This document shows positions 1 to 27,047 of a stretch of 64,000 nucleotides of DNA, in pieces (the first letter of the stretch is position 1; each line of letters begins with the position of its first letter). Below the pieces are notes generated by a model, which was given only the letters and a program-made list of their open reading frames with translations, made no database searches and was not told the origin of the DNA. The stretch is from contig JBKEDB010000013.1 of assembly GCA_047975195.1 (NCBI GenBank), forward strand, positions 4,106 through 68,105. Direction: 5' to 3'. This stretch comes from Cumulibacter sp. (GTDB lineage: Bacteria > Actinomycetota > Actinomycetes > Mycobacteriales > Antricoccaceae). Both the position numbers and the translations under genes were made by a program.

Positions 1-3000
1 GGGATATCGGCCAGGGCGGCATCAATGCGGACGTCGAGCGCGGTGAGGTCGCGAGTGTGTGCGTCGACCGAGCGCTGCGCCGCGAGTACGGCATCCGCAG
101 CGTCGCCAGCACTATTTGCCATCTGTAGCAGGGAAGTGCGCTCGCGCGCTTCCGCCATCACCGAATCGATCTGCGCGCGGCGGGCGACTATCCCTTCGGA
201 GAGTCGGTCGATGGCGGCGGGCTCGTCCGCCGATTCGAGCCGAGCGGTCAGGTAGGTAAGTTGCGCTACGTCTGTCCGCTGCAGCGCCGAGAGTGTCTCG
301 AGCGTTGTTACCCGCTCGTCGAGTTCCGCGCCGAGGGAGCGCTGTAGGTCCCGGATCGCCTGGTCAGCGAGAGCGGACGGCGCGGAATCGCCGCGCCGTG
401 TGCGCGCGTCAGCGATCTCACGTAGCTGGACGGCAGTTAGGGTGCGGTGTTCCGCGTGCGCGTCGAGCGCGGCGATCGCATTGGCGTGCGCGGCGTGAAC
501 CGTGGCGCTCGACGCTAACTGCTCAGCGGTTGCCGTGTGCTCGGCTACGGCGGCGACCGCTGCGTCGAGACGTTCGACGATCGCGCTGAGGCGCTCGGTG
601 TCGACGTTGGTGTGCTCGGCGCCGATCCGGGCGGCGACGCGCTGCAGCATGGTGTGGGTGTTCTCGACGACGAGAGCCTGCTGCTGCGCCTGCGCGGCTG
701 CTTCGGTCGCTGCGTCAGCGGCAGTGCGTAGGGCGTTGATGTGTTCGTGAGTGCTCGGGCTGTGCAGGGCGCGGGTGGTGAGACGTTGCTGCGCGGCGAA
801 GGCTGCCCGCGCGTGCTCGTTGGCTTGGTGTGCCTCCTGTTGCGCGAGGGCGTTCCGCTGTGTGGCGCGGTGGGATTCGAACTCCGCGATGGCGACCGCG
901 CTGTGCCGTTCGAGCAGTGCGAGCGCATTGTCGAGGTCATTGCGCTGGGCCCGCAGCTGGGTGGCCGCATCCTCGACGATGACCAACGCGCTGATCGGAG
1001 GCAATGTGGACTGAGGCGCCCGCGCCGAGTCGGCGGCGCGTGCGGCGTCGGAAGCTAGATTGGCCGCGCCGCGGTTGAGTGCGTCCATCCGCGCGATGAT
1101 CTCGACGAGGGCGGTGGTGTCGATGCCGTCACCGACCCGGGTGCTCAGTGCACGGGCATCCTCGAGCACCGACGTACTGTCGGCGATGATGCTGCGCGCG
1201 GTGTCTCGCGCCTGCTCGCTACGCGCGGCGAGGTCGGCGATCGGAATCGCCTTGTTCGCTACTTCGAGCGCGTCGCGGACTTCTGCGAGGTTCTGCGAGG
1301 CGGCATCGATTTCCGCACTCAGCGCAGTCCGCCCGCGCACGGAGTGGACGGTACGGACGGCATCGTCAATCCGTGCGGGGTGAGGTTGTTCGATCAGCCG
1401 GTTGGTGCGGCGGCTTAGGGTCTTGGCACGTTCGAGACGCCGTTCGGCGGCCGCTGCTGCGTTCCGGGCCGCGTCGAGCGAGGTGAGCGCGTTCTCGATC
1501 TCGACGCGCGCCGCAGGGTGGGAAGCCAGATATGTGGCCAATCGCGGTTGCAGACCGGCCGTTTCGGTGCGCAGTTGTGCAAGGTCGTCAGCGATCGTGT
1601 CCGCGCGTTCCGACTCCTGGGTGAGTAATGTGGCGATCGAGTTGACGGTGAGCGAACCGACCTTCTCTTCAGGTAGGTCCAGAACGCGCGTGGCGTCGTC
1701 GGTGTGCGCGATTCGTGCCCGCGCAGCGGCCACCTCGCCGCGTAGATACGCGGCTACCCTCTCCGGGGTCTGGTTGAGTCGCCTGGATTCGGACTCGTTC
1801 ATCGCGTCGATCGCGGTACGTGGTTGGCCCTCGCCAAGCGCCGCGTCCACGGCGGCACGAAGGTCGCGTAACTCCTCCGGCACGGTCTCGTCGGCCTCCG
1901 TGGCCTGTGTTGCCGCGATGACATCGAGCCAACGGTGCAGCCGTTGTGCCCGCCGGATTGCCTCGCCGCGAACCATCATGTCGTTGCGCGAGAGACCTTG
2001 CAGTGTCGTCTGTAGGGTCTCGACTTGCTGTCGAGGGGTGCGATCGAGTTGCGGATTCGCGCGATGTGCGCGCTGTCGCGCATCTTGCGCCTCGCGCTCG
2101 GCCTTCTGTAGGGCGCCTCGAACCTTCTCCACCTTTGCCGGAGCGCGTTCTTCGGCGATCTTGCCTGCGCGTTCGGCCGGTCCGATTCCAATGGCCGAGG
2201 CAACTGCCGCGAGCGCCGAAACCGCAGAGCGTCCGGTGAGCACGTCGGCGATCGCAGTGACAAACGGAGCGGTGGAGAAGCGCCCGAGATAAAACAGCCG
2301 AGACGCGACTCGTCGTACCGCCGGGTCGGAGGTCGCCGTTGCGGCAGGGGCTACGGTTCCCGCTGTTGACTCGGACGCCGCGGGCTTGCTGGTGACGTCT
2401 CGTTCGGATTCCGCGGTCTGCTCGGCTATGACCGGATCGAGGTCGGCGATCCGGGCCAAGATCTCGATGTTCCGGTCAGTGACCTGGCCGGCCACCAGGT
2501 CACGGGCCATTCCCGGCTGCGCGGCCTCCTGCACGGCGACCAGAGACTTCCACTTGTCCGGGCGAGCGAACCGGTCATGGAACTTACGCAGTTCGTTGGT
2601 CATTTCGACCGACCGCTCGCCTTGCCAACCGAGGCCCGTTGCAGACGCGCCGGCGAATAGTGCAGCGCCGATCGCGGAGCTACTCATGCCGCCGGCGGCC
2701 ATCATCGTCGCGGCGATTCGGCTGGTGAATACGGAGATACCTGCGGCGAAGTAGCGCCCGGACGCGAAGTCAGACAGTCCAGCGGTGAGCCGCGCACCGT
2801 TCTCCGGATGAGACTGCAGCACGGCGAGTTTCTGCTGGACTCGCTCTTCGAGTCGCTGCTGCAGCCGGATCGCCTCTTCCCGGTCGGGACCGTTGGAGAT
2901 TTCGTCAAGGGACGTAGCGATGTGTTCGCCGTATCGGGTTGCGATGTCGGCGACGGCGTGGTCGACCTCGCCGATGGCCAACCGAATCTCGCGCCGTAGC

Positions 3001-6000
3001 CGGCGAAATGGATTCAGCCGAGTGAACAGTGGCGCCGACACGATTTGTGCGGTGACGTCGAGGACCTTGTCGAGAGCCTGCTCAAGGCGAGCGGTATCGA
3101 TCGTCGGAGCAACCACAGAGGTGCCGGGCAGTGCGGCGCGTGCGCGGTCGGCGATCGCGGCGAGTTCGGTATGCAGCTCGATATTGTCCGCGTCGTCCTG
3201 CAACAGCGCGGTGATCTCGGCGATCCGTTCGGCGTCGGCCTCCTGCTGCTCGGCCCGCCGCAGCAGCAACTCGATTTGTGTGCGTTGAGCTTCGTACGCG
3301 TCTTTGGCAGCCACGTCGGTGGCGACCTGGCGTGCTCGAGCCTTCTGCGCCTGGACCCGGTTTTCTCTTTCCGCTTTCGTGCGGTCGATCCCCGGATCGC
3401 CGCTCAAACCGACCTTGCGCAGCAGCCCGCCGCCGATCGCACCGGCAACGAGGTACCCGGCCGACGCGACGCTCATCGCGACGGACTGGGTCGTCGACAT
3501 CTGGATCACGTCGATCACGTTGTGATCGGTGAGCACATCGGCGATGGGGAAGACGCCAAATGCCATCGCGCGGGCCAAAGCGCCGCCCATTGCCTTGAAC
3601 CGTACGGTCGACGCGCTGGCAATCTTGTCCAGCGAATCGACGTCCCGGCCAGGGGAGCTCTCCCGCTGACGCGCGATGTGTTCATCTACTTCGGCCTGCC
3701 CGCGCGCGTGCGCGTCAGCGAGCGCGCGAAGTCTCGCCTGGGCCTGTGTGCTGTTCGTGGACTCATCCGCATGCGCGCCAGCCAGGGACTCGCTCTCAGC
3801 CAGCGCACTGCGCACGTCGTGCAGCTCCTTGCGCAACTGTCCTGCCTGGCGGTCCTGGTCGGCAGTGCGCGGATTGCGGTCATTGGCGGTTCGGGTGTTG
3901 TCGGCGGCGCTGTGAAACTTTCGGATGTCCGCGATGACCGAGAGGGCGGTGGCGACAGCGCCGCCGGCCGCGGTGGCGATGAGTATCGGGACGGTGTCGA
4001 TAGAGCCGAGTGACATCGCCGCGCCTACACTCGCTGCGGCAGGGATCGCCTGCGCCGCCAGTGCTTTGACGGTGAACTGGCGAACCGGAGCGGGGGTGTC
4101 CGGGATAGCTCCGTTCTCGTTGGTGTTGAACGAACGCACAGCGTCCTTTAACCGAGAACTGCCATCTAGGTCCGGAATCCCCTGTAGGCGAGCGAAGTAC
4201 TGACTGACCGTATCCGGATCGAGATTGCCGTCCGAGTCGCGGTTGACGGTGAGATCGAGGCCGAGCGCGGTCAGTTCGGCGGCAACGGCGGCGCGGGCCG
4301 CAGCGCGATGACGTGGCTTGAGCGCCTCGAGGTCATCGAACCGCAGGAGCAATCCAGCGAGCCGGCCGATATCGCGCGGGCTGAGTGATGGATCGGTATC
4401 GGTGGCCACCTGAGAAATGACCGAAGGGACTTGCTGGTGCGGGTCGTCGGTCAGTAAGTCTTCGGAGTTGTTCACCGCGTCCGGCTCAAGGGTAGCGCTT
4501 GCGCGCGCAATCCCTTGTGCGATCACGATGGGTACGTTGGCGGTGGACAGATGCGTCGAGAGCGTGATGTCCACGACTGCCTCGATCGCCCGCTCGGCGC
4601 CCCTGCCCTGCATGCGGACGGGATCCGAAATATGAGTGCGGGCGATGTCGTCCTCGATTGACGCGACGGAATCGGTTGAGGTGTCGACCGTCGACAGGTT
4701 AATCGTCAATGAGCGGGTCGGCGAGGACACCGTGAGTCGAACGGTGCTGTCATCGCTGGCCGTGTGAGTGATCGTCATCCCGAGTGCTCGAGTAAGCCGA
4801 TCGAGCACGGACGCGCCGCGGCGCGGGGTGTCCTCCACCAGTGCGCGAAGCGCCGCGGGGGTGAGCGTCCCGCCATCATCTGGATCAATCGTTAGGCCGT
4901 GCTCAGCCAGTTGGCGATCAGGCGGTCGACTCGGGCCGGGTTCGGGATCATTGTTCGGGAGTGTTCCTTCGCGCCCACCCGACCCAGGCGTGCCACCGAG
5001 TAGTTCTCGGTGATACTCGACGATCGCGACCGCCTCAGCCGCGAGGGCGGGATACCGGGCGCGCGCGGCGGCCTCGATCTCCTGTCGCATCAACGAGCGG
5101 TGCTCGTCGGGTGCGAGCACCGTCATGAACGGCGCGAGGCGTGGATCGCTGGCCACCATTGACGCGAACGCCGCGCGTGCGTCTGGATTGCTGGCAACGA
5201 CATCGACGTGGGGCGGATGAGCGGCGAGAAACTCCGCGCGGGCCGCGTTGCGTGCGCTGAGAATATCCCGGCGTAGCTCGGGCGGCGCGGTCGCGGCAGT
5301 GTGGCCGGATTCGTCGAGCATGGTCCGCGCCAACTCATCGGCCCGTTGGTTCGCCTCACCTTCGACGTGGCTGCGCAAGGCGGCGACCTCCCGCGCGAAC
5401 TGGCGGCTTAGATCGCGGCGGTGCCGTCCGACGAACTCGCCGTCTTCGAGCATGGCGGCGTAGCCGTCCTTCAGTTCCAGCCCCGTCCGTCCTCGCATCC
5501 CATCGAGGTTCGCGACCGCAGAGCCGAGCCCGAGCGGATGAGTAATGCCGATCGGTAGCCCGGTGTGCTCGACTTCGAACTCCGTCGAACTCGGCGTACC
5601 ACCCAACTCGGTCCAGCGGAATTCAAGGCGCCCGTAGCCACGCTCGCTCTCTGGGCGAGGGTCGCTGTCGGCGACCGTTTCCAAAAAGCGCAACCGCAAG
5701 TGCTCGAACAGGCGGTTGGTGATCGCATGGTGTAGATCATCGTGGTGCGCGTCGAACTCGGCATTGTCGGTGAGCGCCGTTGCCGCCTGGGCCGCCAACA
5801 CCTGTTGTGCGGCCTCGTGATCGGCTCGCTGCTGGGGAGTCGCGCCGGGTGGTGGCGGGTCGGCCAAGGAACTCAGGTGCTGGGTGATCTGACTGATGAT
5901 GTCGTTCTTGGTGCGTGTGCCGGCTAGTGAAATTCCAAGATCGGCAGCGATCTGTCGCAGCGCCGGGGCGCGGTAGCTGGCGAGTGCATTGGGATGGGTG

Positions 6001-9000
6001 TTATGTCCGCGTCCGGAACGAGGATCGATCGAGCCGGGCGTGAGATGTGGATTTCCGAGGAGTTCGAGGACTCCGGGTGGACCGGCGGTCGTCAGCGCCT
6101 GGTTCAGGTCGGCCCGTCGCGCGGCGACTGTACCGTCCAAGTCGATCTGCAGGTCGGTGGCAATGCCCTCGTGTTCCTGCGCGGTACGCCGATGCGCGTA
6201 CGCCTCCTCTTGGGCGTTCTGCGCGGCTGCGCGCAATTCCGCGCTGCGAGTCGGGTCGGTTTCGGCCGCAGCGGCGGAAGTCAGCCGCTCCGACTGGCGC
6301 TGGGCTGTTTCCGCGTTCGCGATGGCTTCATCCTGTAGTGCCCGGATATCAGCGATCTGGGTGGCGAGGCGCTGACGCACGGATCTGTCGAGCAGCACCT
6401 CGTCGAGCTGCGGGAGCTCCTCATTGACGATTGCGTTCGCGATGCGTGCGAGTGCGTAATCCGCGGACCGGACCGGAACGCTCTGATAGGTCCCAGAGGT
6501 GACGACGCCGTGATCGGCATCCAGCGCCGTGAGCAGCGGATGGCCGGTGTTCGGAATATGTGTTTCCCACGGCGCGATCTCGTTCGCGAGCACGTGCGCC
6601 TGCGCCTGTGTCATGCCCTCGCGCATGGCCGCGATCTCGGCGTGTTCATGGGCGATGAGGTCGAGATCGGTATCTAGGTGGCTGGTGTCGCCGATTGCGA
6701 GGCGGAGCCACGCCTCCGCGACGTTCACGTCCCCAGCAAACGGTAGTTGGATCTCGCGGCCGTTGAAACTATGCGTGATGATGTCCCGGAACAGATGCAT
6801 CTTGATGTCCTGGATCATCCGCATCGTGACCGGGACCGGACCGTCCGCCGTGGGGATCTGCTGACCGTCAAGAGTCGCGGCAATGCGCAGCGCATCATCT
6901 GTCAACGCCGCGATCATCAGTCGCCCCCGCTCGGCGAGCTCGGCCTGCGCGCGATCCGGCGGCGCGGGCGTGGTCTGGTTGGTCCCGCCTGATGCGATCT
7001 GGGTTAGCCGTGGTGAGTTTGATTCGGCGACGGATTCGGCGCGCTCGTCACGCGCCGCAGTGCTGTCGATGTCGCTGGTGGCAGGCGTGGCGGGATTCGC
7101 TTCCTCGGTAACGGAGGCCGACCGCTCGGCAGGCGATGACGCACTCTGGGTGTCGGTTCTGGAGTCCGAGGTGTGCTGTCGTGGCGAAACCTGATCCGCG
7201 ATCCTAGCCGCAGCGCTCTTGCGCGCATCCCTTTGTTGCGCAGCTTCCTGGCGCGTCGCGGGCGCTGGTCCATCTGCTGCAGCCTGGCTCGTCAGGTGCT
7301 GCAACACGGTTACTTCGGCTACCTGGTGGGTAAGTAGATCGACATCGGCTTGGGTCGGGTCTCCACCGATGAGCCGTGCGTACGCCTCTTGCGCCGCGGT
7401 AACCGCGTGCTGCCCATCGCGCCTCACCGAAGAATCGGCCGAGAAAGTGTGCGACATCGCCGCGCTGATCTGAGTCGGCGTCAGATTGATCCCGTGAGTA
7501 TCAAAGTCGGCCGTCTGTAAGCTGTCGGCAGCCAGCCGGACGGCAGGCGGCACCACCGGCACGTTGAACGCGATCATCGGGCTAATCATCGATCCGAGGC
7601 GCGATCGCAGCGATTGTTGGGTGTCGGCGCGAGCCGTGCTGTCCGAGGTCGTCGTAACGCCGGGGGTCGAACTGTGAGCGGCTGGGCTGGCGACCGCATC
7701 TGTCTGCGTGTTCGGCCGGTCAGCGGCGGTGTTGTCCTCGGCGGTGGACGTGCCGGACTGCTCATTCGGCGTGGCCGCTATTGACGAATATGAGCCGCCC
7801 TCGTTCGCTGCTGATTCGTCGACCTGCGTGTCGACCTCTGACGATTGGTTGGCTACCGCCGGGTCGCTGGGCGTGGCGTCGGGATCTGTCGCCCTCAAGG
7901 CAGTCTCCGCAGAACTGTCCGCGGCGGTGGCCGATTCTTCGGTGGAGTTCTGCTCGGAGATCGACGTGTGCTCGGCAGAGGTGTGTTCGGAGGTGCTGGG
8001 CTCCTCGACGGCGTTCGATTCGACGGTGCTCGTTGCTTCCGACGTGACGTCGGTGTTCGCGCTGGCCGCGACCTCGGTGGCCGCGTTGCTGTTCTCGCCC
8101 GCGGCGTTGTCGGGCGCCGCATTGGCAGCTGCGGTGTCGCTCGCCTCCGCGGTAGCGGCGGTGCTCTCGGCGTTGGATGCCGGCGTCGAGCTCGTCGTCT
8201 CTGATGAGGCGGATTCTGGTGATGTGGTCTGTGATGACGTGGTTTCTGCCGACGTCGATTCGGTCGCGTTCGAACTCGATGTTGCGTTGGACTGCGAGTT
8301 GGTCTGCGATGACTGGCTACCGGATTGAGTGCTGCTTTGGCTGCTTGAGTGCGATCCCGAGCCGGTCCCGGCCTGTGTCGACTGACTGCTCGGTGTCGAC
8401 TGACCGCTTGGCGCAGCCTGGCCGCCCGGTGCGGCGGCGACCGCGCCGCTCTGCTGTCCGCCGTCGCTGGCGCTGGAGGTGTCCACGGATTGAGCCGCCG
8501 GCGTACTGGAGGAGTATTGCGTAGCGGATCCAGAATCTGTGGCGGTCGAACCTTGGGCACCAGCTTGTGACGCCTGGCCGCTGGTCTGTGCGGACGATTG
8601 CGTGCCACTGTTGCCTTGCGACGATGCGCTGCTTTGCGTCGAACTCTGCGACTGTCCGCCGTTCTGTGTCGCGCCGTCCGGGTTCGTGCTCACCGAGGGC
8701 TGCCCGGCGTTGCTGGGCTCGACACTCGGGGCTGCTGTGGTCGAGGGGCTGGGCGCGGTGATGTCGGCAGCCATCGAGGTGGCCGCAGTCCGCAGGTTGG
8801 TCATCGTGTCGGGTGAAAATGGACTCGCCGTGTTGTATCGCCCGGCCGCGGTCGCCGCCGCGCCAAGCAGAGCATCAGGGCTGAACGCTGCCGCGAGGTC
8901 CCAGTTCCCATATACCGCGCCGTTTGCGATATAGCTGCCGGTAGGGGAGGCCAGCATGTTCGTACCGGCAGAGATTGCCAGGTTAGTCATGTGCTGGCCG

Positions 9001-14545: not shown

Positions 14546-15967
14546 TTAGCCGCTCGCCCGCGCGGACACTGGATCTAGCGCGGGTCCCTCGGGAATCCTG
14601 GCTACGAGCGTTGCGGGCATCGTCACGGGGCTGACTTGATCGAGACCTAACGCGGCCGCGGCCTGCTCTCCGGGCACCGCGAATCGCACGCCCTCATCCG
14701 TCACCAGGTATAGCGCGCCGTCGGTCGCGGTCGGCGATTGCGCAGAACGCACATATACCGCGTGCCCGCCGCGTACCAGCACCTGATCAGCCAGCACGGT
14801 GCCGTTGCTTGTGCGCTGCGGAGTCGCGAGCGCGTACTGATCGTCCTCGGATGACGGGTCGACCGCGACGTCGAGTTCGGCGGAATTGCTGCCGAGCGAT
14901 GCGCACACCGTGGAACTGGCGCTGGAAACCTGCGCGGGCGTGGGGATATCGCGGGGAGCATCGTCAAATGACGACGGCGGCAGATCCTCACGTGGCGCGG
15001 CGGTCACCACGGCGTTGTCGACCTCGAGCGCCGTGGGGCTCTTTCCGTCGTACGCCGCCGAAGTCCCGGGAGCGGACAACGTCACGTTCGCTTCAACCTC
15101 GCTAATGTTGCGCAGATCATCCTTGCGGACCAAGTAGAACTGTTTGGTCGTCGCGTCGACCAGGACTTGCCCGACCTTGTATTGCTTCACCGCTGATGAG
15201 GATTGGCCCGCGGAGGAGGTCGCGAGCGGTTTGATTTCCTGCCCGACCGGCAAACTGTCCAGCAGAGCTGGACCGACCTCGATCTGCGGCGCATCACGCA
15301 ATCCGAGCGCGGTGATCGCAGGGTCAGGGTCCGGGAGTAGGAAACGGTGCCCATGCCACACCAGGTACACCGCGTCGGAGTTCATATCTGCCAGGAGCAG
15401 GCTGCCGTCGCCGATCGAGTTGCCGCCGGGGTCTGATTGACCGACCAGCAGCGTCGTGCGTGGGGTCAGGTCGCCAGTCTCAGTCTTGGTCATACCGCTG
15501 CACATCACCCACGGATCGGCGAGGAAGCTGTCCGGCTGCGGGATCGAATCCGGTGCTCCGGCGATGCCCAGTCGTGGGCCGCGGGGAGCGCCAGCCAGTG
15601 AGGCTTGCGATACCGACACCGGGGTGGGATTGCCCACCAGCAGGGCAGCCGACGCGTAGTTGAGGACCGGGTGTAACGCGAACTCCCGCGTCTGGGGATC
15701 CTCGAGCCACGCGTAGGTCGCGCCGGTCTCCTCCTCGAGGAAGACCTCGCCCGCGTCCTTCCACGTCGTGTTACCGCCGCCGTTGATGACGCCGATGACT
15801 CCGGAGACCGCCACTGCGAGGACGGCGACCATCACGCTGCCGAACATCGCACCGCCCAACCTGCGCAGCGGAGTCTGAGCGGGGTCGGTCTCCCGCAGCA
15901 CGAGCCCGGAGACAACGCGGCGAAGACTGAATTGGTACGACTGGAACAGATCGCGTTTGGTTGCCAC
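14546..15967 (-). CDS. eccB: ESX core component EccB
   Basis: The N-terminus 'TKRDLFQSYQFSLRRVVSGLVLRE' followed by a single TM helix and a large extracytoplasmic domain of about 400 aa is the EccB signature layout. It follows eccD after a 3-nt gap. Confidence 0.9.
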   Translation of the reverse strand: MATKRDLFQSYQFSLRRVVSGLVLRETDPAQTPLRRLGGAMFGSVMVAVLAVAVSGVIGVINGGGNTTWKDAGEVFLEEETGATYAWLEDPQTREFALHPVLNYASAALLVGNPTPVSVSQASLAGAPRGPRLGIAGAPDSIPQPDSFLADPWVMCSGMTKTETGDLTPRTTLLVGQSDPGGNSIGDGSLLLADMNSDAVYLVWHGHRFLLPDPDPAITALGLRDAPQIEVGPALLDSLPVGQEIKPLATSSAGQSSSAVKQYKVGQVLVDATTKQFYLVRKDDLRNISEVEANVTLSAPGTSAAYDGKSPTALEVDNAVVTAAPREDLPPSSFDDAPRDIPTPAQVSSASSTVCASLGSNSAELDVAVDPSSEDDQYALATPQRTSNGTVLADQVLVRGGHAVYVRSAQSPTATDGALYLVTDEGVRFAVPGEQAAAALGLDQVSPVTMPATLVARIPEGPALDPVSARASG

Positions 15968-15970
15968 CCC

Positions 15971-17413
15971 TCAGCCCCACAGTCCTCGAACGTACGAGAA
16001 CAGGCCGACCACCAGGCACATGATCGGCACGATCGCCAGCGACGCCAGTATGTCGATGATGTCTGCGATTCGGGCGACGTACGGCGTAGGTTGCCGCGTG
16101 TGGAAGTAACGGCCCACGGCGATCAGCAGCAGTGCTAGTAATGCGAGCGCTGGTATGGCAATTGTCGCCCGCTGTTCGGCGTCCAACTCCGCAATGAGTG
16201 AAAAGGCCATGAGAGCAAGTGATCCTGCACCGCTGACGAGTAACGGAACGCGGTGACGCGCGGTGGGGAACAACCGTGCTCGAAGCAGAACGGTGACCGC
16301 CACGAGGGCGACGAAGATGATCGCCGAGGTACGGCCGGAACCCAGGAGCAGCAGGCTGCTAACGAGCGAGACCGCGGCCGATCCCATCAACAACCCGGTC
16401 AAGATCTCGTCCGAGCGGCGAACGGTGCCGTGCACTCGTTCGATCGGGATCTGCGGTTCGTCGGCCAGCAATTCATCGGTGCTCGTCGGCAGCGCCGGTA
16501 CGGGAAGTTTGCCCAATCGGATCGACAGGATCGGGAACGCGGCGGTGAAGATGGTCACCGTCGTGATGGCGATCGCTGCGGTGTCCGCCGCATCGATGTG
16601 ATCGGCCAGTGCCAGCGAGCAGGCCAGCAGGCCGACGAGCCCGATCCACGCGGTCGCGATGAAGTACTGGATTTGCTGCGCGACCAGCAGGATGGAGAGC
16701 ATTGACGCCACGACCAAACACCCGCTGGCCAGGATGTACTGCCACGCATCGAAATCAGCGAATGCTTGGTCCCCGCCGAGCACGACTAACCCGCCGGCTG
16801 CGGCATACAGTGTGCCCATGCTCGCGCAGGTCACCGCCGACGCGGTATCGCCAGGTTGGGTGCGTGAAAGGCCATAAGCGGCGAATAGCAGTACGACGGC
16901 GATAGCCAACGCAATCAGGCCAGGGCTTCGCCATGAGGGTCCCGACAGCATCAGCCAGAACAGCCCCATGAGCAGGCTCAGCGCGCCAAGTAGAAGTCCG
17001 GTGAGATGGGTGCGAGATCCAGACCATGGGCTCGTCGACTTACGAGTGCCGGTCGCTATCGCGTCCACAACGTCGTCGTAGTCGACTTCCGGCCATTCGG
17101 TGAATCGCCCGACCATGTGAAGGACTTCGCCGTCGCGTACTTGCTGATCTTCCAGCGTGCGGTCGTGATCGATGGGCGTACCGTCGGCGCGGTGCAGAAC
17201 CCAGCCGCCATCTCGCTGAGCGTCGTCTGCCGCGGATTCGCCTGCGGCGGTGATTAACGACAGCATCAACTCCGCGACCGGCACGGACTGCGGGAGCGCG
17301 ATGTCGATTCTGCGTTGCGGTGCAGCTACCGTAATTCGGGCTAGGTCATCTGAAACTGCGCGCGTCACGGGTGACTCCATGAGATGAGGGGTCCTGGCTG
17401 GCGTGGCTACCAT
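15971..17413 (-). CDS. eccD: ESX core membrane component EccD
   Basis: The ubiquitin-like N-domain 'ARITVAAPQRRIDIALPQSVPVAELMLSLI...DGEVLHMV' is followed by about 11 hydrophobic helices. Start chosen at ATG 17413 (GAGAGGGG upstream). Alternatives are 17380, or 17632 as in the track. Confidence 0.85.
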   Translation of the reverse strand: MVATPARTPHLMESPVTRAVSDDLARITVAAPQRRIDIALPQSVPVAELMLSLITAAGESAADDAQRDGGWVLHRADGTPIDHDRTLEDQQVRDGEVLHMVGRFTEWPEVDYDDVVDAIATGTRKSTSPWSGSRTHLTGLLLGALSLLMGLFWLMLSGPSWRSPGLIALAIAVVLLFAAYGLSRTQPGDTASAVTCASMGTLYAAAGGLVVLGGDQAFADFDAWQYILASGCLVVASMLSILLVAQQIQYFIATAWIGLVGLLACSLALADHIDAADTAAIAITTVTIFTAAFPILSIRLGKLPVPALPTSTDELLADEPQIPIERVHGTVRRSDEILTGLLMGSAAVSLVSSLLLLGSGRTSAIIFVALVAVTVLLRARLFPTARHRVPLLVSGAGSLALMAFSLIAELDAEQRATIAIPALALLALLLIAVGRYFHTRQPTPYVARIADIIDILASLAIVPIMCLVVGLFSYVRGLWG

Positions 17414-17433
17414 AATGGCACCCCTCTCGGACC

Positions 17434-20400
17434 GTGGAGCTTTCCGCCCGTCGAAGGAGATACCGCTTGGGAACGTTGATTGTTCGCCGTCAGCCGCGAC
17501 GGGAGGCTCCGGAGCTTCCGACCGGCGAGGTGGTGATCGACCCGCCCCCAGAGATTCCGCGCGACAGCGGGAAAAACTGGTCGCAGATGCTGATGATGCT
17601 GCCGATGCTCGCCGGCGCCGGTGCGATGGCATTGATGTTCAGCAGCCGCGGCGGCGGTGGACCGATGGGGTACGTGTTAGGTGCGTTGTTCGGGCTGTCA
17701 GCGCTCGGCATGATCGGTGTCGGCCTGATGCAGAACACCGGCGGCGGTAGCAAGCGTGAGCGCACTGCGCAGCGGCGCGACTACATGCGTCACCTTGCCT
17801 CGCATCGCAGCAATGTTAAGAAAACGATTACCCAGCAGGCGAAGGCGATGTTCTATCGCCACCCGGAACCCGATCAACTCCTCGTCACGGCGGCGAGTTA
17901 TCGGCTATGGGAACGCCGCCGCGAGGACGCCGACTTCGGCGCCGTGCGGCTTGGACTAGGGCCGCAACAACTCGCGACGCCGCTGATCACGCCGCAGACC
18001 AAACCACTGGATGAACTCGAACCCGTGTGTGCCGCGGCCCTTCGAAAGTTCGTCAACACCTACGCAAATGTGCCAGGGCTGCCAATAGCGATGGCGCTCA
18101 ACGGGTTCAGTCGCGTCTACATCACCGGAGCGGACGAGGACGCACGCGCGATGGTGCGCGCGCTATTGGCGCAAACCGCCGTGCACCATTCGCCGGACGA
18201 CGTGATGATCGCGATGTGTGTGGGGCATGAGGAGCGAGCGAACTGGGAATGGGCGAAGTGGCTGCCGCACGGATTCCATCCCGAGCGTGAGGACGCCGCC
18301 GGCAATCTACGCCTCGTTGCGCCGAACATGCCCTCGATCGAAGCGATGCTGGACGACATCCTGAGCGTGCGGCCTCGCTTCAATCCGGCCGGAGGGCAGG
18401 CGCAGATCGCCGGCCCGCACCTGCTGGTCGTCATCGACGGTGGCAATGTGGCCGGCTCCAGTCACCTCATGGCCGATTCTGGCCTCGAGGGCGTCACCGT
18501 GATCGATCTCTCCACTGCGCCGCCGCGGATGCTGGAGAGTTCCATGCTCGTGCTGAATGTGGACGAGAATCGGACGGTTCGCAGCCGTACCGACGATGTC
18601 GAGTCTAAGCTAGGCATCGCCGACCGGTTGAGCCTCGCCGATGTCGAGGCGCTCGCGCGTTACCTGGCACCTCGTCGGATGTCGATTGGGTCGGTCGGGG
18701 ACAAGGCGATGAGCTCGGCGATGGGCCTAGGTGAGCTGCTTGATCTCGGCGACCCTTACAACTACGACGTCACTCGCGGCTGGAAACCGCGCGCCAACCG
18801 TGATCAGTTGCGAGTGCCGATCGGCATCGGTCCGGACGGTCGACCTGTGGATCTGGATATCAAGGAATCGGCGCAGGACGGGATGGGTCCGCACGGGCTG
18901 CTGATCGGCGCGACCGGTTCGGGAAAGTCCGAACTGCTGCGAACGTTGGTGCTCGCCCTCGCAATCACGCACAGTTCGGAGAATCTGAACTTCGTGCTCG
19001 TGGACTTCAAGGGCGGCGCGACGTTCACCAAGCTGGACCGGCTACCGCATACCTCTGCGGTCATCACGAACCTGTCGGACGAACTGCCGCTGGTTGACCG
19101 AATGGTTGATGCGATCAACGGTGAGCTGCTACGCCGTCAGGAGCTACTACGTACCGCCGGCAAGTTTTCCAGCCTGCGCGATTACGAGAAGGCCAGACTC
19201 GCCGGCGCACCGCTGGATCCCATGCCCAGCCTGCTGATCGTCTGTGACGAGTTCTCTGAGCTGCTGTCGGCCAAACCGGACTTCATCGACATGTTCGTGC
19301 AGATCGGCCGCGTCGGCCGGTCGCTGGGCGTGCACTTGCTGCTCGCGTCCCAGCGGCTGGAGGAAGGGCGCCTTCGAGGCCTGGACACGCATCTGTCTTA
19401 CCGAGTATCGCTACGCACGAACTCGGCGTCCGAGTCGCGAGTCGTCATCGGAGCCCCCGACGCGTTCGAACTTCCGCGTGCCCCGGGACACGGCTATATC
19501 AAGTTCGGCACCGACCCGCTCGATCGCTTTCGCGCCGCGTATGTCTCGGGTATGTACAAGCGAAAGAAGGCCGGCCAGGCTGCCGGCGGAACGCCGAGCG
19601 AGGTAGCGATTCTCGCGTACGACACGCTTTACCACGCACCCAAGGTCGAGACCGAACCGACGACGGACATCGAGGAGAAGCCCGACGATCCGGACGAGGG
19701 CGTCGGTGAGAGCCTGCTCGACATCGTCGTTGACCGGATCGAGGGACGTGGCCCGGAGGCGCACCGGGTGTGGTTGCCGCCGTTGGCCGAGCCTCCCACT
19801 TTGGATCAGCTGCTGCCGGGGCTCTCCACTGACCCGCAGTATGGGTTGACGGTCTCGGGATCCGACCTCCGCGGCACGCTCCGGGCGAACGTCGGAGTGA
19901 TCGACAAACCCTTCGAACAACGTCGCGAAACTCTACAGATCGACCTCACCGGAGCCGGTGGGCACGTCATGGTCGTGGGTGCGCCACAGTCCGGGAAATC
20001 CAACTTCCTGCGCTCGATCGTGTGTGGGCTAGCGCTGACGCACACCCCAGCGGAGGTTCAGTTCTACGGTTTCGATTTCGGCGGCGGCGGACTGGGCGCG
20101 TTGCGCGAACTTCCGCATGTCGGCTCGGTTGCCTCACGGCGCGACACGAACACGGTGCGGCGCACCATGGCCGAGTTGAAGCAATTGCTGGAGATGCGTG
20201 AGGCGCTGTTCGCGCAGTACGGCGTGGAGAATATGGCCGCATATCGACGGGCCAAGGCGCGCGGGGAGTTCGCCCAGGACCCGTACGGCGATGTGTTTCT
20301 GGTCATCGATGGTTGGCAGACCGTGCGCAACGATTTCGAACCGATCGAACCCATCTTGAACGAGATCGGCACCCGGGGCTTGTCGTACGGGATCCACTTG

Positions 20401-21441
20401 GTCGGTTCGGCGTCGCGCTGGATGGACCTGCGATTGGCGCTGCGCGACATGTTCGGCACCAAGTTCGAGTTGCGCCTGGGCGATCCCGGAGATTCAGTGC
20501 TGGGGCGTCGCGTCGCCATGAACGTGCCCGATGACAAGCCAGGCCGCGGGCTCACCGACGACCTGCTACACATGCTGACGGCTATACCGAGAATCGATGG
20601 CGTGCAGGAGGTGGACTCGCTACCGGACGGTGTTGCCGACCTGATCGCGCGCGTGAAGGAAGCCTGGCCGCACCCGGGTGCCCCCAGTGTTCGGCTGCTG
20701 CCGCCTGAGATCGGCTATGCGGCAGTGCCAAGCGATCCAGCCCGCGGTGTGTCGATCGGCTTGTCCGAGACCGACCTCGGACCGGTGTACGTGGACGTCC
20801 TCAACGAACCGCTACTTGTGGTCTACGGCGACAGTGAGTCGGGTAAGTCGAACCTGCTACGGGTGATGGCGTATCGGGTGATGGAGCAGTACTCGCCGGA
20901 CGAGGCCAAGATCATCATCATCGACCCGCGCCGGTCGCTACTTGGCGAAGTTCCGGAGGACTACCTACTCGCGTACGGGACGACGTCCGATCACGCCGGC
21001 AAGATGAGTGAACAATTGTCGCGTTCGCTGACCAGACGATTGCCCGGCAGCGACGTCACGCCAGAGCAATTGCGCAACCGAACCTGGTGGAGCGGCCCGG
21101 AACTTTTCTTCTTCATCGACGACTACGACCTCGCGAGCACCGGGTCACCGCCGCCACTGCAACCACTGGTGGACTTCATGCCGCAAGCGCGTGACATCGG
21201 TCTGCATCTGACTGTCACCCGCCGATCCGGTGGCGCCGGACGGGCGCAGTACGAACAAATGCTGCAGCGCATGAAGGAGTTGGCCGCGCCCGGAATCGTG
21301 ATGTCCGGCACCCGCGACGAGGGTGCGCTGGTGGGCACGGTGCGTCCCGAGGCATTGCCGGCGGGGCGCGGTTATTACGTGACGCGACGTGAGGGAACCC
21401 GCCTCATCCAGATCGCGTGGAAGCCTCCCGCAGACCTGTAA
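17434..21441 (+). CDS. eccC: ESX core FtsK/SpoIIIE-type ATPase EccC (single polypeptide, three ATPase domains)
   Basis: Two N-terminal TM helices. Three Walker A sites: GATGSGKSELL, GAPQSGKSNFL and GDSESGKSNLL. Walker B is LLIVCDEFSEL. An alternative start is TTG 17467, preceded by AAGGAG (17454-17459). Confidence 0.95.
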   Translation: MELSARRRRYRLGTLIVRRQPRREAPELPTGEVVIDPPPEIPRDSGKNWSQMLMMLPMLAGAGAMALMFSSRGGGGPMGYVLGALFGLSALGMIGVGLMQNTGGGSKRERTAQRRDYMRHLASHRSNVKKTITQQAKAMFYRHPEPDQLLVTAASYRLWERRREDADFGAVRLGLGPQQLATPLITPQTKPLDELEPVCAAALRKFVNTYANVPGLPIAMALNGFSRVYITGADEDARAMVRALLAQTAVHHSPDDVMIAMCVGHEERANWEWAKWLPHGFHPEREDAAGNLRLVAPNMPSIEAMLDDILSVRPRFNPAGGQAQIAGPHLLVVIDGGNVAGSSHLMADSGLEGVTVIDLSTAPPRMLESSMLVLNVDENRTVRSRTDDVESKLGIADRLSLADVEALARYLAPRRMSIGSVGDKAMSSAMGLGELLDLGDPYNYDVTRGWKPRANRDQLRVPIGIGPDGRPVDLDIKESAQDGMGPHGLLIGATGSGKSELLRTLVLALAITHSSENLNFVLVDFKGGATFTKLDRLPHTSAVITNLSDELPLVDRMVDAINGELLRRQELLRTAGKFSSLRDYEKARLAGAPLDPMPSLLIVCDEFSELLSAKPDFIDMFVQIGRVGRSLGVHLLLASQRLEEGRLRGLDTHLSYRVSLRTNSASESRVVIGAPDAFELPRAPGHGYIKFGTDPLDRFRAAYVSGMYKRKKAGQAAGGTPSEVAILAYDTLYHAPKVETEPTTDIEEKPDDPDEGVGESLLDIVVDRIEGRGPEAHRVWLPPLAEPPTLDQLLPGLSTDPQYGLTVSGSDLRGTLRANVGVIDKPFEQRRETLQIDLTGAGGHVMVVGAPQSGKSNFLRSIVCGLALTHTPAEVQFYGFDFGGGGLGALRELPHVGSVASRRDTNTVRRTMAELKQLLEMREALFAQYGVENMAAYRRAKARGEFAQDPYGDVFLVIDGWQTVRNDFEPIEPILNEIGTRGLSYGIHLVGSASRWMDLRLALRDMFGTKFELRLGDPGDSVLGRRVAMNVPDDKPGRGLTDDLLHMLTAIPRIDGVQEVDSLPDGVADLIARVKEAWPHPGAPSVRLLPPEIGYAAVPSDPARGVSIGLSETDLGPVYVDVLNEPLLVVYGDSESGKSNLLRVMAYRVMEQYSPDEAKIIIIDPRRSLLGEVPEDYLLAYGTTSDHAGKMSEQLSRSLTRRLPGSDVTPEQLRNRTWWSGPELFFFIDDYDLASTGSPPPLQPLVDFMPQARDIGLHLTVTRRSGGAGRAQYEQMLQRMKELAAPGIVMSGTRDEGALVGTVRPEALPAGRGYYVTRREGTRLIQIAWKPPADL

Positions 21442-21623: not shown

Positions 21624-22361
21624 GTGGGCGATTTCGACCTGCCCGGTATCAAGGTGGAGTCCCAAGCATTGATGAACTTCGCTCAGGGCGCCTCCGAGGA
21701 TTACCAAACGCATGGCACGACGATCTCCGACAACTTCTCGAAGTTGGGCATGAAGGTTGGACTCAGCGGATTGCCGTCCGCAGCGTTGCTGGCCACCTGG
21801 AACAACAACGTGATGCTCGCGACGTCGAACTTCCTGATGGACGTGAACTACGGACTCCAGGCCGTCACGACGGGCGCGGTCTCTGTCGCGGCGATCTACC
21901 AGGAGAGTGACACCGACGCCGAGGCGCAGATGAACGCCGTGAACTCCGCGTTCTACCCGGTCTCCAGTGATCAGACACTCAGCGCGCAGCGAGCTGAGCA
22001 GCAGGCTGCGGCCGAACAGAACGGTGAGCAGACCGAGCAGGAGATCCTGAACGAGGCGGCCAACACCTCGATCACGGAGTCGTATGTCCCGACCGCCCCG
22101 GTGACGTCCTCGACGAACGCGTGCCGCCCGGCGGATCCGTACAGCGCTCAGGGTGCCGAGTCGCTGGTGGACCAGCACCAGGCCGATGATCAGGACGATC
22201 AGCAGAACGGTGGGCACACCCACTACGACGAGTACGAAGCTCCGGAGGACACTCCGGAGGGCGCCAACGTGCCAGGCGCGCCTGAGGCAGAACAACCTGA
22301 CGAGGTGATTCTTGCGCCGGGGGCGGAGCCATCCGGGCCGGATCCGACGGCAGTAGCGTAA
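21624..22361 (+). CDS. PE-like / ESX secretion-associated protein with a YxxxD motif
   Basis: GTG start after GAAGGAG. The helical N-domain of about 100 aa ends in 'AAIYQESD' (YxxxD, 21897-21911), followed by an acidic, Gln-rich tail. It lies directly downstream of eccC and upstream of the WXG partner. Confidence 0.7.
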   Translation: MGDFDLPGIKVESQALMNFAQGASEDYQTHGTTISDNFSKLGMKVGLSGLPSAALLATWNNNVMLATSNFLMDVNYGLQAVTTGAVSVAAIYQESDTDAEAQMNAVNSAFYPVSSDQTLSAQRAEQQAAAEQNGEQTEQEILNEAANTSITESYVPTAPVTSSTNACRPADPYSAQGAESLVDQHQADDQDDQQNGGHTHYDEYEAPEDTPEGANVPGAPEAEQPDEVILAPGAEPSGPDPTAVA

Positions 22362-22374
22362 GGGGCGATCAACA

Positions 22375-24363
22375 ATGTCCGATAACTTCGGCGCGCCCGA
22401 TCCCGGTGCCGGGGCGTACGAGCCCGGGGTTCCAAGCCAGAGTTACTATCCGTCCTACGGTGATGCGCCCGCGCCGATTCCGGCCAATCAAGACCTGCAG
22501 TACGGCGACATCAACATGCACTACGTGGCGATCACGAAGGAGGAGCCGGACACCATCTGGGACGCGGGTTGGGCCTGGGGCCAGATCGGCACCGCACTGA
22601 CCTCAGGTGCCGACGCGATCCGGCAGCAGGGCATCACGCTGTCTTCGAAATGGGAGGGCGCGGCAAAGGAAGCCTTCCTGATGAAGGTCGGCATGCTCAC
22701 CGCAGTGCTGGATAACTGGGCTGAGAAGGCGAACGCCAACAAGTCTGCGCTGTGTTTCAATCTGTACGGCGAAGTCGTTCGCAAACGTAATGCGATGGTC
22801 ACCTTGTGGCAGGAGTACAAGGAAAGGTCTGACACGCTGCGTTCGGAAGAAAACGCGAATGACAGCATCGGGGAACTCGGCAACGACATTGTCGAAGCTT
22901 TTGGCGGCAAGGATCGCCTGGCGGAGAACCTGGAGCACTATTCGAGGCGCTCGCGGGAAGAAATTCTCACGCCGATGTCGACGGCGTACGACACTGCCTT
23001 CCAGTCCATGAGCACGGGTGCGGTCTACCAGGGCCCCAAGGACGCGCTCGTGAAAGAGTTCACGGCACCGGGAGTCGGCCCCGGCCCAGGTGCGCCGGGC
23101 GCTCCCGCGGCTCCGGGTGCACCTGCCGGAGCCGCGCCGCCCGCGCCCGGGGGGTTGAATCAGCCATTGCCGGGGGCCGTGCCTACGGCTGCGCTGATCG
23201 GCATGTACGGACGCCCGCAGTCGCCCGACGTCGGGCAGATTCGCGACCACATCATGGCGGGTTTCCGCCAGCCGCCGACGAATCCGCTCAACGAACAGGC
23301 CATGCGCGACGTGCAGCAGCACATGCTCGATCATCTGCCTGCACCCGAGGCGCCGGAAGGAATCGCCACTCCCGCGATCGCGCCCCCGCCGGTCGCTCCG
23401 GCCTTACTGCGTCCGACGAGCTCTGCTCCGGCGAACTCCGCGCAAACCGGCCGCGGTGCGGCCCCGACAGCGCCTAATCTTTCCGCCGGCAGCGCCCGGC
23501 CGGCAGCGCCCGGGATGCCCGCGGGCCTCAATGGTCGCGGCGCGGCGCCTGCGGCGCCGGGCATCGGTGGCCCGGGGGCTGGGACCCGACCGCCGACAGC
23601 ACCAGGTCTTGGCGGGCGCGGGAGCGCCAGCCCTGCTGCGCCGCCCTCGCGATCCGGCCTGGGTGCCGGCTCACCCGCCCTTGGTGGGCGCTCCGGGGCG
23701 CCCACCGCACCCGGCGTTGGTGGTCGACCAGGTGCGCCTGGCGTTGGTGGTCGGCCAGGCGCCCCCGGTGCCGGTGGTCGCCCCGCGGCACCTGGTCTCG
23801 GTGGACGGACTGCAGGTGGCCGACCAATCACGCCGCGCACGTCGCCTAACGTGCCGACGTCGCTGCAGGGCCGTCCGACGGCGCCCGGCATCGGCGCGCG
23901 CCCCGGCGCGAGCGGCAAACCCGGCGCGACCGGCAGAGCAGGAATTGGCAGTTCGGCGTCGCCACGGCTCGAGTACGGCACGCCCAAGGGCTCCGGGGCA
24001 TTGGGCGGGCGCTCCACTGCGGTACCGACGTCACGGCAGGCCAACGCCGAAGCGGCGCGTCGCGCGCTGCGTGCGTCGCTGACAGGGCGCCCCAACGACG
24101 TTGCCGGGCATCCGCAGGCCGGCGGAGGCGCGACATCCCAGCGCCAACCCGCGACCCAGCCGCACCAGGCCCGGAGGGCAGACCGTAGTCCGCGGACTCG
24201 CTCGGAGGAGAAGCCGGATGGGCAGGTATCGACGGAACTGGCGTTGGTCGGCGGCACCGAGTTGTTCGAGGCGGACGGTGCCGGTGACGGCGTCATCGCG
24301 GCGCGCACGCCTCACGAGCGCGTGACGCGATCCGGCCCCGCAATCGGCGCCAAGCGAGACTGA
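22375..24363 (+). CDS. PPE/EspB-like WXG-containing protein with a long Pro/Gly/Ala/Arg repeat tail
   Basis: N-domain 'WDAGWAWGQIGTAL...LSSKWEGAAKEAF' (W-E-G). The tail of about 400 aa has many 'GGRxGAPG' repeats. It is paired with the preceding YxxxD protein. Confidence 0.75.
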   Translation: MSDNFGAPDPGAGAYEPGVPSQSYYPSYGDAPAPIPANQDLQYGDINMHYVAITKEEPDTIWDAGWAWGQIGTALTSGADAIRQQGITLSSKWEGAAKEAFLMKVGMLTAVLDNWAEKANANKSALCFNLYGEVVRKRNAMVTLWQEYKERSDTLRSEENANDSIGELGNDIVEAFGGKDRLAENLEHYSRRSREEILTPMSTAYDTAFQSMSTGAVYQGPKDALVKEFTAPGVGPGPGAPGAPAAPGAPAGAAPPAPGGLNQPLPGAVPTAALIGMYGRPQSPDVGQIRDHIMAGFRQPPTNPLNEQAMRDVQQHMLDHLPAPEAPEGIATPAIAPPPVAPALLRPTSSAPANSAQTGRGAAPTAPNLSAGSARPAAPGMPAGLNGRGAAPAAPGIGGPGAGTRPPTAPGLGGRGSASPAAPPSRSGLGAGSPALGGRSGAPTAPGVGGRPGAPGVGGRPGAPGAGGRPAAPGLGGRTAGGRPITPRTSPNVPTSLQGRPTAPGIGARPGASGKPGATGRAGIGSSASPRLEYGTPKGSGALGGRSTAVPTSRQANAEAARRALRASLTGRPNDVAGHPQAGGGATSQRQPATQPHQARRADRSPRTRSEEKPDGQVSTELALVGGTELFEADGAGDGVIAARTPHERVTRSGPAIGAKRD

Positions 24364-26662: not shown

Positions 26663-27047
26663 GGTCGATGAATTCCAAGCGATACTGGCGAACCTGACTC
26701 GCCGGCACCCAACTGCGGTACACACCGCGCTCGACGCGTTCTAGGCCTGCTTCGGCGGCTGCGGGCGCGTCGTTGGCCAACGACTCTACGAGCAGTTCGG
26801 AGGGTTCGGTTCGCTCGTCGAGGATAGCCACCGGTACGTCACCAACTTCTCCGATCGGCCGCACATAGTGGATCCTGTCGCACTCGGCCAATGGAACTTC
26901 ACGCACGAACTCCTCGCCAATGGGTTCGAACCCCTCACCGTCGCGCGGACTGTGCAGGCTGACGAGCTGTTCATCCTGTCCCAGATAAATCGCGGCGTCA
27001 TACTCGGTGCCGAGATAACTGGCGACGATGCGGGCGCGGGCAATCAT
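26625..27047 (-). CDS. Hypothetical acidic 140-aa protein, last gene of the espI-like operon
   Basis: Its ATG overlaps the upstream stop (ATGA at 27044-27047). Composition is diverse and non-repetitive. No motif recognised. Confidence 0.6.
   Translation of the reverse strand: MIARARIVASYLGTEYDAAIYLGQDEQLVSLHSPRDGEGFEPIGEEFVREVPLAECDRIHYVRPIGEVGDVPVAILDERTEPSELLVESLANDAPAAAEAGLERVERGVYRSWVPASQVRQYRLEFIDLNPAQQHGGEFG

Follow-up and report, generated by a model that had tools for sequence, protein, structure and literature searches.

A 5223-residue protein encoded at the edge of a Cumulibacter ESX locus, a candidate type VII secretion substrate with a WXG100-like N-terminus

CpnT of Mycobacterium tuberculosis is a protein of fewer than 1000 amino acids (aa) that carries a C-terminal TNT NAD+ glycohydrolase (PMC8092274). 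In the LXG-Lap and EatA-TapA pairs, the helical trafficking domain of a type VII secretion system (T7SS) toxin is bound by small WXG100 partners (bioRxiv 10.64898/2026.08.24.746431), and the YbaB-fold proteins EspH, EspD and EspL are chaperones, or proposed chaperones, for Esp substrates (PMC6109436). In Schaalia odontolytica, AesA and AesB are Esx substrates encoded in an Esx cluster, AesB being composed of a helical N-terminus and a Gly-rich disordered region (PMC13622651). Here we describe a gene that can be set beside all of these systems, located at the left edge of a 64,000-nucleotide stretch of DNA from Cumulibacter sp. (hereafter the window; assembly GCA_047975195.1, contig JBKEDB010000013.1, positions 4,106 to 68,105). 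Its product, a protein of 5223 aa that we call the giant, is best read as a substrate of the neighboring ESX system, because it begins with a WXG100_2 domain, because its gene belongs to a cassette beside the ESX core genes and because the arrangement recurs in other species.

The part of the gene that lies in the window is as follows.

3..9839, minus strand: residues 1-3279 of the 5223-aa open reading frame (ORF) of the giant, identified by its open frame, the coding-type GC content at third codon positions, the identity to GenBank MFV0532601.1 and the Logan contig L002 described below

The first-pass annotation of the window had reported a minus-strand frame open from the ATG at 9839 to position 3, with at least 3279 codons, and careful translation of the reverse complement bears this out, with 3279 codons and no in-frame stop anywhere in 3..9839. 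It had also supposed that the ORF track skipped the frame since no stop codon falls in the window, which agrees with the way the track is made, as frames extending beyond the source sequence are not listed. The remaining five frames across 1..9839 contain 48-96 stops each, and their longest open run is 337 codons; a stop-free run of 3279 codons would be expected by chance with a probability of ~8e-34, calculated from base composition alone. GC content at codon positions 1, 2 and 3 is ~0.7, 0.5 and 0.75 over most of the ORF, matching eccC, eccB and eccD of the same locus, and the sole departure, at codon positions 1 and 2, is in a Ser/Thr-rich stretch. Because this codon-position pattern is that of coding DNA and the chance of such an open frame is negligible, the ORF is a real coding sequence, and a spurious frame of the kind found in high-GC DNA is ruled out. 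As the annotation had stated, the frame lies on the same strand as the preceding ESX-linked gene and just downstream of it, but the gap, given there as 8 nt, measures 10 nt (9840-9849; the TGA of the upstream gene is at 9850-9852).

The gene could be completed from public data. When 1.84 billion representative proteins were searched exhaustively with residues 1-1200 of the giant, the window ORF proved to be 100% identical to residues 1-3279 of P0001 (GenBank MFV0532601.1), a 4648-aa entry labelled "MAG: hypothetical protein, partial [Cumulibacter sp.]", where MAG stands for metagenome-assembled genome; Cumulibacter is placed in the Geodermatophilaceae. The 90% cluster of P0001 also contains P0152, of 5223 aa, from the Logan assembly of SRR30067233, and P0151 (MFV0535716.1), a 568-aa partial entry from another contig of the same MAG. 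P0001 corresponds to residues 1-4648 and P0151 to residues 4656-5223 of one protein, and since the two are parts of the same protein on separate contigs, the MAG assembly must have broken inside the gene. The complete gene is present, uninterrupted and ending in TAG, at 1485-17156 of the Logan contig SRR30067233_105766 (L002), of which positions 1-11323 align with window positions 11323-1 at 99.956% identity over 11,323 nt. Extending the locus leftward to reach the C-terminus, which the first-pass annotation had called for, was thus achieved, and the missing 1944 residues were recovered from L002. The full gene measures 15,672 nt and encodes 5223 aa (~551 kDa, isoelectric point 4.9); the window holds the front 63% of it, the final 1944 codons lying to the left. 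GenBank thus already contains the gene, in the form of two partial "hypothetical protein" entries, and it was overlooked only by the ORF track of the window.

The view that the frame is non-functional, whether a chance opening, an assembly chimera or a decaying pseudogene, could draw on the break in the MAG assembly and the two partial entries that resulted from it. Besides the codon-position pattern and the chance probability given above, it is contradicted by the independent assembly, which contains the same unbroken 5223 codons with 6 substitutions over 4648 residues and zero indels, and by a collinear orthologue in C. manganitolerans. With two independent assemblies and an orthologue at hand, this explanation is excluded.

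The evidence for a link to type VII secretion begins with the N-terminus of the giant, in which three features can be delimited.

8805..9839, minus strand: conserved N-terminal module, residues 1-345 (alignments A1, A4 and A5)
9345..9779, minus strand: WXG100_2 domain (PF25547), residues 21-165 (Pfam; WxG by regular-expression search)
9321..9482, minus strand: hydrophobic helical hairpin, residues 120-173, a predicted membrane segment (Kyte-Doolittle 19-residue mean up to 2.38)

The match to PF25547, a family named CpnT-like N-terminal in source annotations, has an E-value of 1e-17 and a score of 64.9 bits against a cutoff of 27, and covers profile positions 6-146 of 150. The WxG motif is W74-E75-G76. 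The family consensus at this site, GWxxP, retains by majority the Trp and the Gly just before it, but not the Gly of WxG, and none of these columns is invariant. Residues 1 to ~345 are the only part common to the whole family of giants in our alignments; invariant within them are W34-P35, F114, A115, E117, Y120, K122, S124, N126, E219-E220, E223-E224, D228 and others. The hairpin, which contains a YxKISIN..AF motif kept across the family, would insert into the membrane, to judge by its hydropathy, and is followed by an acidic helix (EEVAEEVFID) and then by a Gly-rich hydrophobic stretch at residues 250-268. Pfam scans found no LXG domain in the giant at E ≤ 1, no TNT domain in the full protein, and no similarity to the Esp families (EspA, EspE, EspC, EspF).

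The second line of evidence is the genomic setting. Together with MycP and two WXG100 genes, EccB, EccC, EccD and EccE make this a complete T7SSa (ESX-type) locus; all of them are found within 16 kb, and the genes are arranged as follows.

24426-25928, plus strand: eccE
17434-21441, plus strand: eccC
15971-17632, minus strand: eccD
14546-15967, minus strand: eccB
14055-14441, minus strand: WXG100 gene 1
13708-14007, minus strand: WXG100 gene 2
12031-13533, plus strand: mycP, between the WXG100 genes and the YbaB-like gene
11585-12031, minus strand: YbaB/EbfC-like gene, the first gene of the cassette (Pfam PF02575, E = 3.4e-11)
9850-11448, minus strand: upstream partner gene, 532 aa (from its translation)

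The YbaB-like gene, the WxG partner gene and the giant, in this order and with the giant last, form a same-strand cassette. Beyond the stop codon of the giant, after which no terminator-like site was found, lie four genes on the opposite strand (L002 17195-20153) with no Pfam match on record, and metabolic genes come next; the giant is the final gene of the ESX locus on that side. Its partner has a WxG helical N-terminus of ~100 aa (NPWGEDSDGQEF) and a Gly/Ser/Ala/Pro-rich tail of ~430 aa with PMMPP(S/A)G repeats, and DNA tandem repeats are found at 10290-10363, 10496-10538 and 11002-11067. The first 100 residues of the partner are homologous to a 107-aa protein encoded at the same position in Sphaerisporangium dianthi (E = 2e-10), the two having the motif PWGxDSxGxxF in common, and the related motif PWGxDxxGxxF occurs in small proteins encoded upstream of short toxin-like relatives of the giant, one of which is a Pfam WXG100 match.

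The third line of evidence is recurrence. At E ≤ 1e-3, ~260 representative proteins match the query of residues 1-1200, nearly all through the N-terminal module. Many of them are themselves giants, of 3100-5009 aa, from Sphaerisporangium, Nonomuraea, Blastococcus and Dactylosporangium, named "WXG100-like domain-containing" or "CpnT-like N-terminal domain-containing" in UniProt and NCBI; the Cumulibacter member is the longest that we have seen. In a survey of one genome per species of the GTDB, with each locus checked, the N-terminal module was present in 61 other species, at least 46 of the 61 loci encoding at least 2000 aa and several extending past the 10-kb flank. In 56 of these loci a YbaB-like gene precedes the giant by 0.8-1.9 kb, and tblastn detects a homologue of the partner N-terminus between the two genes in ~24. 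The cassette is thus found in dozens of species of Geodermatophilaceae and Streptosporangiaceae, while the body of the protein varies between genera. Six loci (Modestobacter, Blastococcus, one Geodermatophilaceae MAG and three Actinomycetota MAGs) have the synteny eccC-eccD-eccB-mycP-ybaB-giant, most of them also with detectable esx and partner genes. The cassette of S. dianthi is tight, with a YbaB-like protein of 143 aa, a partner of 107 aa and a giant of 3691 aa. Full-text literature searches returned no description of the giant subfamily or of the YbaB-partner-giant cassette; the Cumulibacter protein appears to be undescribed too, as does the internal domain considered below.

Among 13 giants that were scanned, WXG100_2 was recognized in all 13, a Gln_amidase papain-fold toxin domain in two, a YwqJ-type deaminase in one and DUF6782 in one. 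Regions resembling Gln_amidase stand at the C-terminus of the shorter family members and within the chain of the giants. Across the relatives, a conserved trafficking N-terminus is combined with variable effector parts, as is characteristic of polymorphic toxin systems; of the further hallmarks of these systems (Zhang et al. 2012), neither a C-terminal toxin domain nor a downstream immunity gene was found for the giant. The body of the Cumulibacter protein is common only to P0002 of C. manganitolerans, which is collinear with it at 73% identity over residues 1-359 and 49% over residues 741-2992, and a contig scan with residues 2080-3279 found no relative, in agreement with a body specific to Cumulibacter. 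The C. manganitolerans orthologue in UniParc has 2877 aa and ends where the alignment ends; it is probably truncated as well.

No Pfam or NCBIfam threshold is reached by anything past residue 165 of the full protein. Four regions of the body can be delimited in the window by composition, hydropathy or weak similarity.

7440..8804, minus strand: Ser/Thr/Gln/Ala-rich low-complexity linker, residues 346 to ~800 (composition)
5880..5984, minus strand: weak Rho_N/SAP-like helix-extension-helix, residues 1286-1320 (Pfam Rho_N)
2172..4076, minus strand: four moderately hydrophobic Gly/Ala-rich segments (hydropathy)
3..1892, minus strand: long Ala-rich, Pro/Gly-poor helical region, residues ~2650-3279 in the window, continuing to residue ~4870 outside it

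The linker, which could not be aligned with the C. manganitolerans orthologue, contains nearly no hydrophobic residues and has, in the 200 residues from 401 to 600, 57 Ser, 39 Ala, 29 Thr and 21 Gln. The four hydrophobic segments (residues 1922-1976, 2079-2144, 2361-2405 and 2515-2556, with hydropathy up to 2.06) are separated by charged helices and are kept in the C. manganitolerans orthologue (alignment A7); their secondary structure in AlphaFold2 (AF2) models is helical, at low confidence. Residues ~2650-4870 have a hydrophobic periodicity of 3.4-3.6 with similarity peaks at offsets 7 and 14, and in all ~2800 residues of the body are mostly helical. No internal protein repeats, long-period autocorrelation or noteworthy DNA tandem repeats were found in the ORF. 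All five cysteines of the protein are within residues 4863-4966 (L002 16071-16382, outside the window); four of them form the pattern C-x7-C-x-C-x7-C directly ahead of an acidic Pro-rich linker and could constitute a metal-binding site or a disulfide knot. After the acidic linker, the last ~230 residues are a separate block of ordinary composition.

Candidate identities for parts of the body were also considered. The Rho_N match (E = 1e-4, 22.6 bits) is below the cutoff of 24.9 and is taken as a hint only. An apparent duplication, seen by eye, between residues 1640-1880 and the C-terminal domain was dropped, as blastp gave E > 1. The only match to a PDB sequence anywhere in the giant is a weak one, between residues 1544-1666 (window 4841-5209, minus strand) and the tube initiator gp17 of cyanophage Pam3 (PDB 7yfz), with an E-value of 1e-5 for a 201-aa query, a score of 28.9 bits and an alignment that runs partly through low-complexity sequence.

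One internal domain of the giant, for which no Pfam, NCBIfam or PDB-sequence match was found and which we refer to as the orphan domain, can be followed into other proteins.

6540..6917, minus strand: orphan alpha+beta domain, residues ~975-1100 (alignment A3 and AF2)

It is marked by the motifs IKxHLF, AEAWxRL, D..LL.HE.AE and EAH..AN..W, and K1013, H1015, W1044, R1046, D1058, H1064, E1065, E1068, H1082 and W1091 are invariant in alignment A3. The AF2 model computed from a 12-sequence alignment is confident, with a predicted local distance difference test score (pLDDT) of 88 and a predicted template modelling score of 0.83; a model of residues 965-1120 has no fold neighbor in the PDB or BFVD, where the best E-values are 0.43 and 0.15 and the TM-score is at most 0.29. 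Ntox28 (Zhang et al. 2012), with its [DN]HxxE motif, was considered and set aside, as the spacing of the motif differs and Pfam gives no match. The orphan domain is the C-terminal domain of two short WXG100_2 proteins, P0094 (409 aa) and P0140 (339 aa), follows a PT-TG pre-toxin domain in P0123 and is internal in six further large family members of 1219-3506 aa. A profile search added 24 small stand-alone proteins (P0153-P0176) from Streptomyces, Nonomuraea and Nocardia, all annotated as "hypothetical" and without a Pfam match. In the loci of P0094 and P0140, a small helical protein of ~105 aa (a Pfam WXG100 match in one) is encoded upstream, then comes the short protein itself, and an ORF of 77-80 aa follows directly downstream on the same strand, an order that has the textbook layout of a T7SS toxin and its immunity protein. 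The two downstream ORFs share just the weak motifs Y.F/L.GD.S and WPxR. From its position and conserved polar residues, the orphan domain is probably a module with toxin or enzyme function, from a family not yet described, and in the short relatives the domain and the small ORF may be a new toxin-immunity pair. As a widespread actinobacterial family at the toxin position, without a Pfam model or structural neighbor, it is a lead in its own right.

We therefore put at roughly 60% the probability that the giant is cargo of the neighboring T7SSa with a role as an effector. The first-pass annotation had called it an unusually large candidate T7SS substrate or apparatus-associated factor, and this description stands, given the score of the WXG100_2 match, the position of the cassette in a full ESX locus and the 56 of 61 species in which the YbaB-like gene accompanies the giant. 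By analogy with the described systems, the YbaB-like protein would serve as a cytosolic chaperone for the giant, the WxG N-terminus of the partner would pack against the helical domain of the giant in a secretion-competent bundle, in the manner of the LXG-Lap and EatA-TapA pairs and of AesA-AesB in Schaalia, and EccC would recognize the bundle and export the complex, export being presumably EccC-dependent. Once outside, the hairpin at residues 120-173 and the Gly-rich segment at residues 250-268 might hold the giant in the membrane while the 450-residue Ser/Thr/Gln-rich linker crosses the cell wall, so that the orphan domain, the four hydrophobic segments, the ~2800 helical residues, the four-Cys knot, the acidic linker and the C-terminal domain of ~230 aa would be displayed outside. 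The helical body, the hydrophobic segments and the internal domain could then act on neighboring cells, antagonism of other cells or contact with them being the most likely role. We propose that the giant works as a multi-domain effector and not as a classical toxin with the active domain at its C-terminus.

Several points weigh against this reading. For the giant, as for every member of its subfamily, secretion and function are inferred. Helix 2 does not end in a canonical YxxxD/E export motif, and the sole fit in the giant, Y83-N-F-S-E87, comes right after WxG and is not conserved. The expected position of the signal is occupied by the conserved motif F114-A-x-E117-x-x-Y120; in the partner, whose N-terminus contains YLTDS and YAADA in the translation, neither sequence fits YxxxD/E. 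Variant export signals have been reported for AesA and AesB. The AF2 model of residues 1100-2299, computed from a two-sequence alignment, is uninformative (pLDDT 42.6). The final 1944 residues match no Pfam family at E ≤ 0.1 and no PDB sequence at E ≤ 1, no same-strand immunity-like gene follows the giant in L002, the next four genes being on the opposite strand, and tblastn found no homologue of the downstream ORFs of the short relatives in the window or in L002. Anchoring, wall spanning and surface display, derived from hydropathy and composition, are more speculative and much less probable than export itself. Finally, the reading raises the question of how an EccC-centered pore would accommodate a 551-kDa cargo with hydrophobic hairpins.

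Other explanations can be set against secretion as an effector. It is unlikely that the giant is a structural part of the ESX apparatus, a membrane-anchored stalk or fibre passing through the cell wall and not a released effector, although the fixed place that the gene takes in Geodermatophilaceae, at the edge of the ESX locus, the strongly hydrophobic hairpin and the further hydrophobic segments would all be in keeping with such a part, and ~2800 helical residues would suit a long rod. Unlike the core parts, the giant is conserved between genera only over its first ~345 residues, its body being limited to C. manganitolerans; its relatives carry toxin-type domains, and the solved ESX core complexes of EccB, EccC, EccD, EccE and MycP need no such component (PMC11217815). 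Quite unlikely, too, is a classical polymorphic toxin, in which the T7SS trafficking domain and a long filler deliver a C-terminal toxin and the cognate immunity gene is adjacent. The first-pass annotation had implied a C-terminus of this type, an expectation that the recovered 1944 residues and the opposite-strand genes beyond them, with no Pfam match on record, do not support, and the recognizable toxin-type domains of giants are mostly internal. The Gln_amidase and YwqJ-deaminase domains of family members speak for such a toxin, however, as do the conserved N-terminal module with variable bodies behind it and the last ~230 residues, set apart as a separate unit by the four-Cys cluster and the acidic Pro-rich linker.

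That the giant is a coiled-coil scaffold, in the cytoplasm or associated with a membrane, which is encoded beside the ESX genes by coincidence and not handled by their products, is by comparison very improbable. Its length, its Ala-rich helical make-up and the lack of an enzymatic signature along most of the chain would suit a scaffold; against this stand the WXG100_2 domain, which scores above threshold, the 10 nt that separate the gene from that of the WxG partner, and the conservation of the YbaB-partner-giant cassette next to ESX genes. Within the preferred reading, that of exported cargo, a more daring version can be formulated: the cassette could define an undescribed class of T7SSa cargo, hairpin-anchored helical surface fibres of half a megadalton with internal effector domains, in this case the orphan domain with its confidently modelled but unmatched fold, whose Gly-rich segments would enter the membrane of a target cell. 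We consider this version unlikely.

The surroundings of the ESX genes contain further ORFs of note. Between eccC and eccE, a 662-aa ORF (window 22375-24363, plus strand) has sub-threshold similarity to PPE/WXG100_2 at its residues 57-122 (E ~0.01-0.02) and may, on this sequence resemblance, be another ESX substrate with a helical N-terminus; a 245-aa ORF ahead of it (21624-22361, plus strand) has no match. The longest-ORF call for eccC, from a GTG at 17434, shares ~200 nt (17434-17632) with the 5' end of eccD, which is divergent to it, and the true start of eccC is probably further downstream. At 27044-31201 of the window, a protein with an SseB N-terminal domain, a ParA/MinD-like ATPase and a beta-helix plus AAA/AAA-lid ATPase flank the ESX locus; by their domain content, one might conjecture that they are accessory factors with EspI-like or EccA-like roles. 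On the other side, three of the opposite-strand genes beyond the giant (L002 17195-19675, minus strand; 201, 199 and 428 aa) adjoin one another, have no Pfam matches on record and are paralogue-like, with the similar C-terminal endings AAYFDLAL, HAAYFDLALE and HAAYIDQVRR.

Part of what is described here was already known: the sequence is deposited, the N-terminal domain is a curated Pfam family, and T7SS cargo that travels with a small partner has precedents. If exported, the giant, with its 5223 aa, would rank with the largest T7SS substrates so far proposed. The question that its size poses for an EccC-centered pore is a general one, as the cassette is kept in at least 56 environmental actinobacterial species, and it can be tested in cultivable hosts such as C. 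manganitolerans, Modestobacter, Blastococcus, Nonomuraea and Sphaerisporangium.

One described counterpart of the giant is CpnT, the prototype of the actinobacterial WXG100_2 proteins, with which it has in common an N-terminal WXG100-like helical domain, hydrophobic helices, a variable C-terminal part and genetic linkage to WXG100 genes and ESX systems. It differs from CpnT in its 5223 aa, in a conserved N-terminal module that extends to residue ~345 and in having neither TNT nor another known toxin domain. The LXG-Lap pairs of Bacillota and the EatA-TapA1/TapA2 proteins of M. abscessus ESX-4 likewise combine a helical N-terminal trafficking domain with co-encoded small helical partners, and their layout of partner, toxin and small ORF is found exactly in the short relatives of the giant; in the giant itself, by contrast, no immunity-like gene follows and the domain that occupies the toxin position in those relatives is internal (residues ~975-1100). 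LXG toxins, moreover, belong to T7SSb, whereas the giant has no LXG match and its locus, with EccB, EccD, EccE and MycP, is a T7SSa.

In operon logic, the cassette resembles the ESX-1 trios EspD-EspC-EspA and EspH-EspF-EspE, in each of which the genes for a protein of the YbaB fold and for a small helical WxG protein accompany that of a larger substrate (PMC6109436). The likeness is confined to that logic, as there is no sequence similarity to EspA, EspE, EspC or EspF, and the giant is more than ten times longer than the large Esp partner and has hydrophobic hairpins. The AesA-AesB pair of S. odontolytica offers a parallel for the partner, which like AesB has a helical WxG N-terminus and a long Gly/Ser-rich, disordered-looking tail, and which adjoins a second protein with a helical N-terminus within an Esx cluster (PMC13622651). 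This likeness is one of description; the GYNVP motif of AesB is not in the 532-aa partner, and nothing of giant size is described in Schaalia (PMC13622651).

The PPE_MPTR and PE_PGRS proteins are, like the proposed cargo, T7SS substrates in which a small helical N-terminal domain is followed by a very long, composition-biased C-terminal part. Very large mycobacterial PE/PPE substrates reach ~3700 aa in M. tuberculosis. The giant, which is ~40% longer, has no PE or PPE domain, and its body is helical and non-repetitive where theirs consists of short tandem repeats. Read as a fibre, finally, the giant would be similar in logic to the multi-effector toxins of the MARTX type, but in a Gram-positive type VII system.

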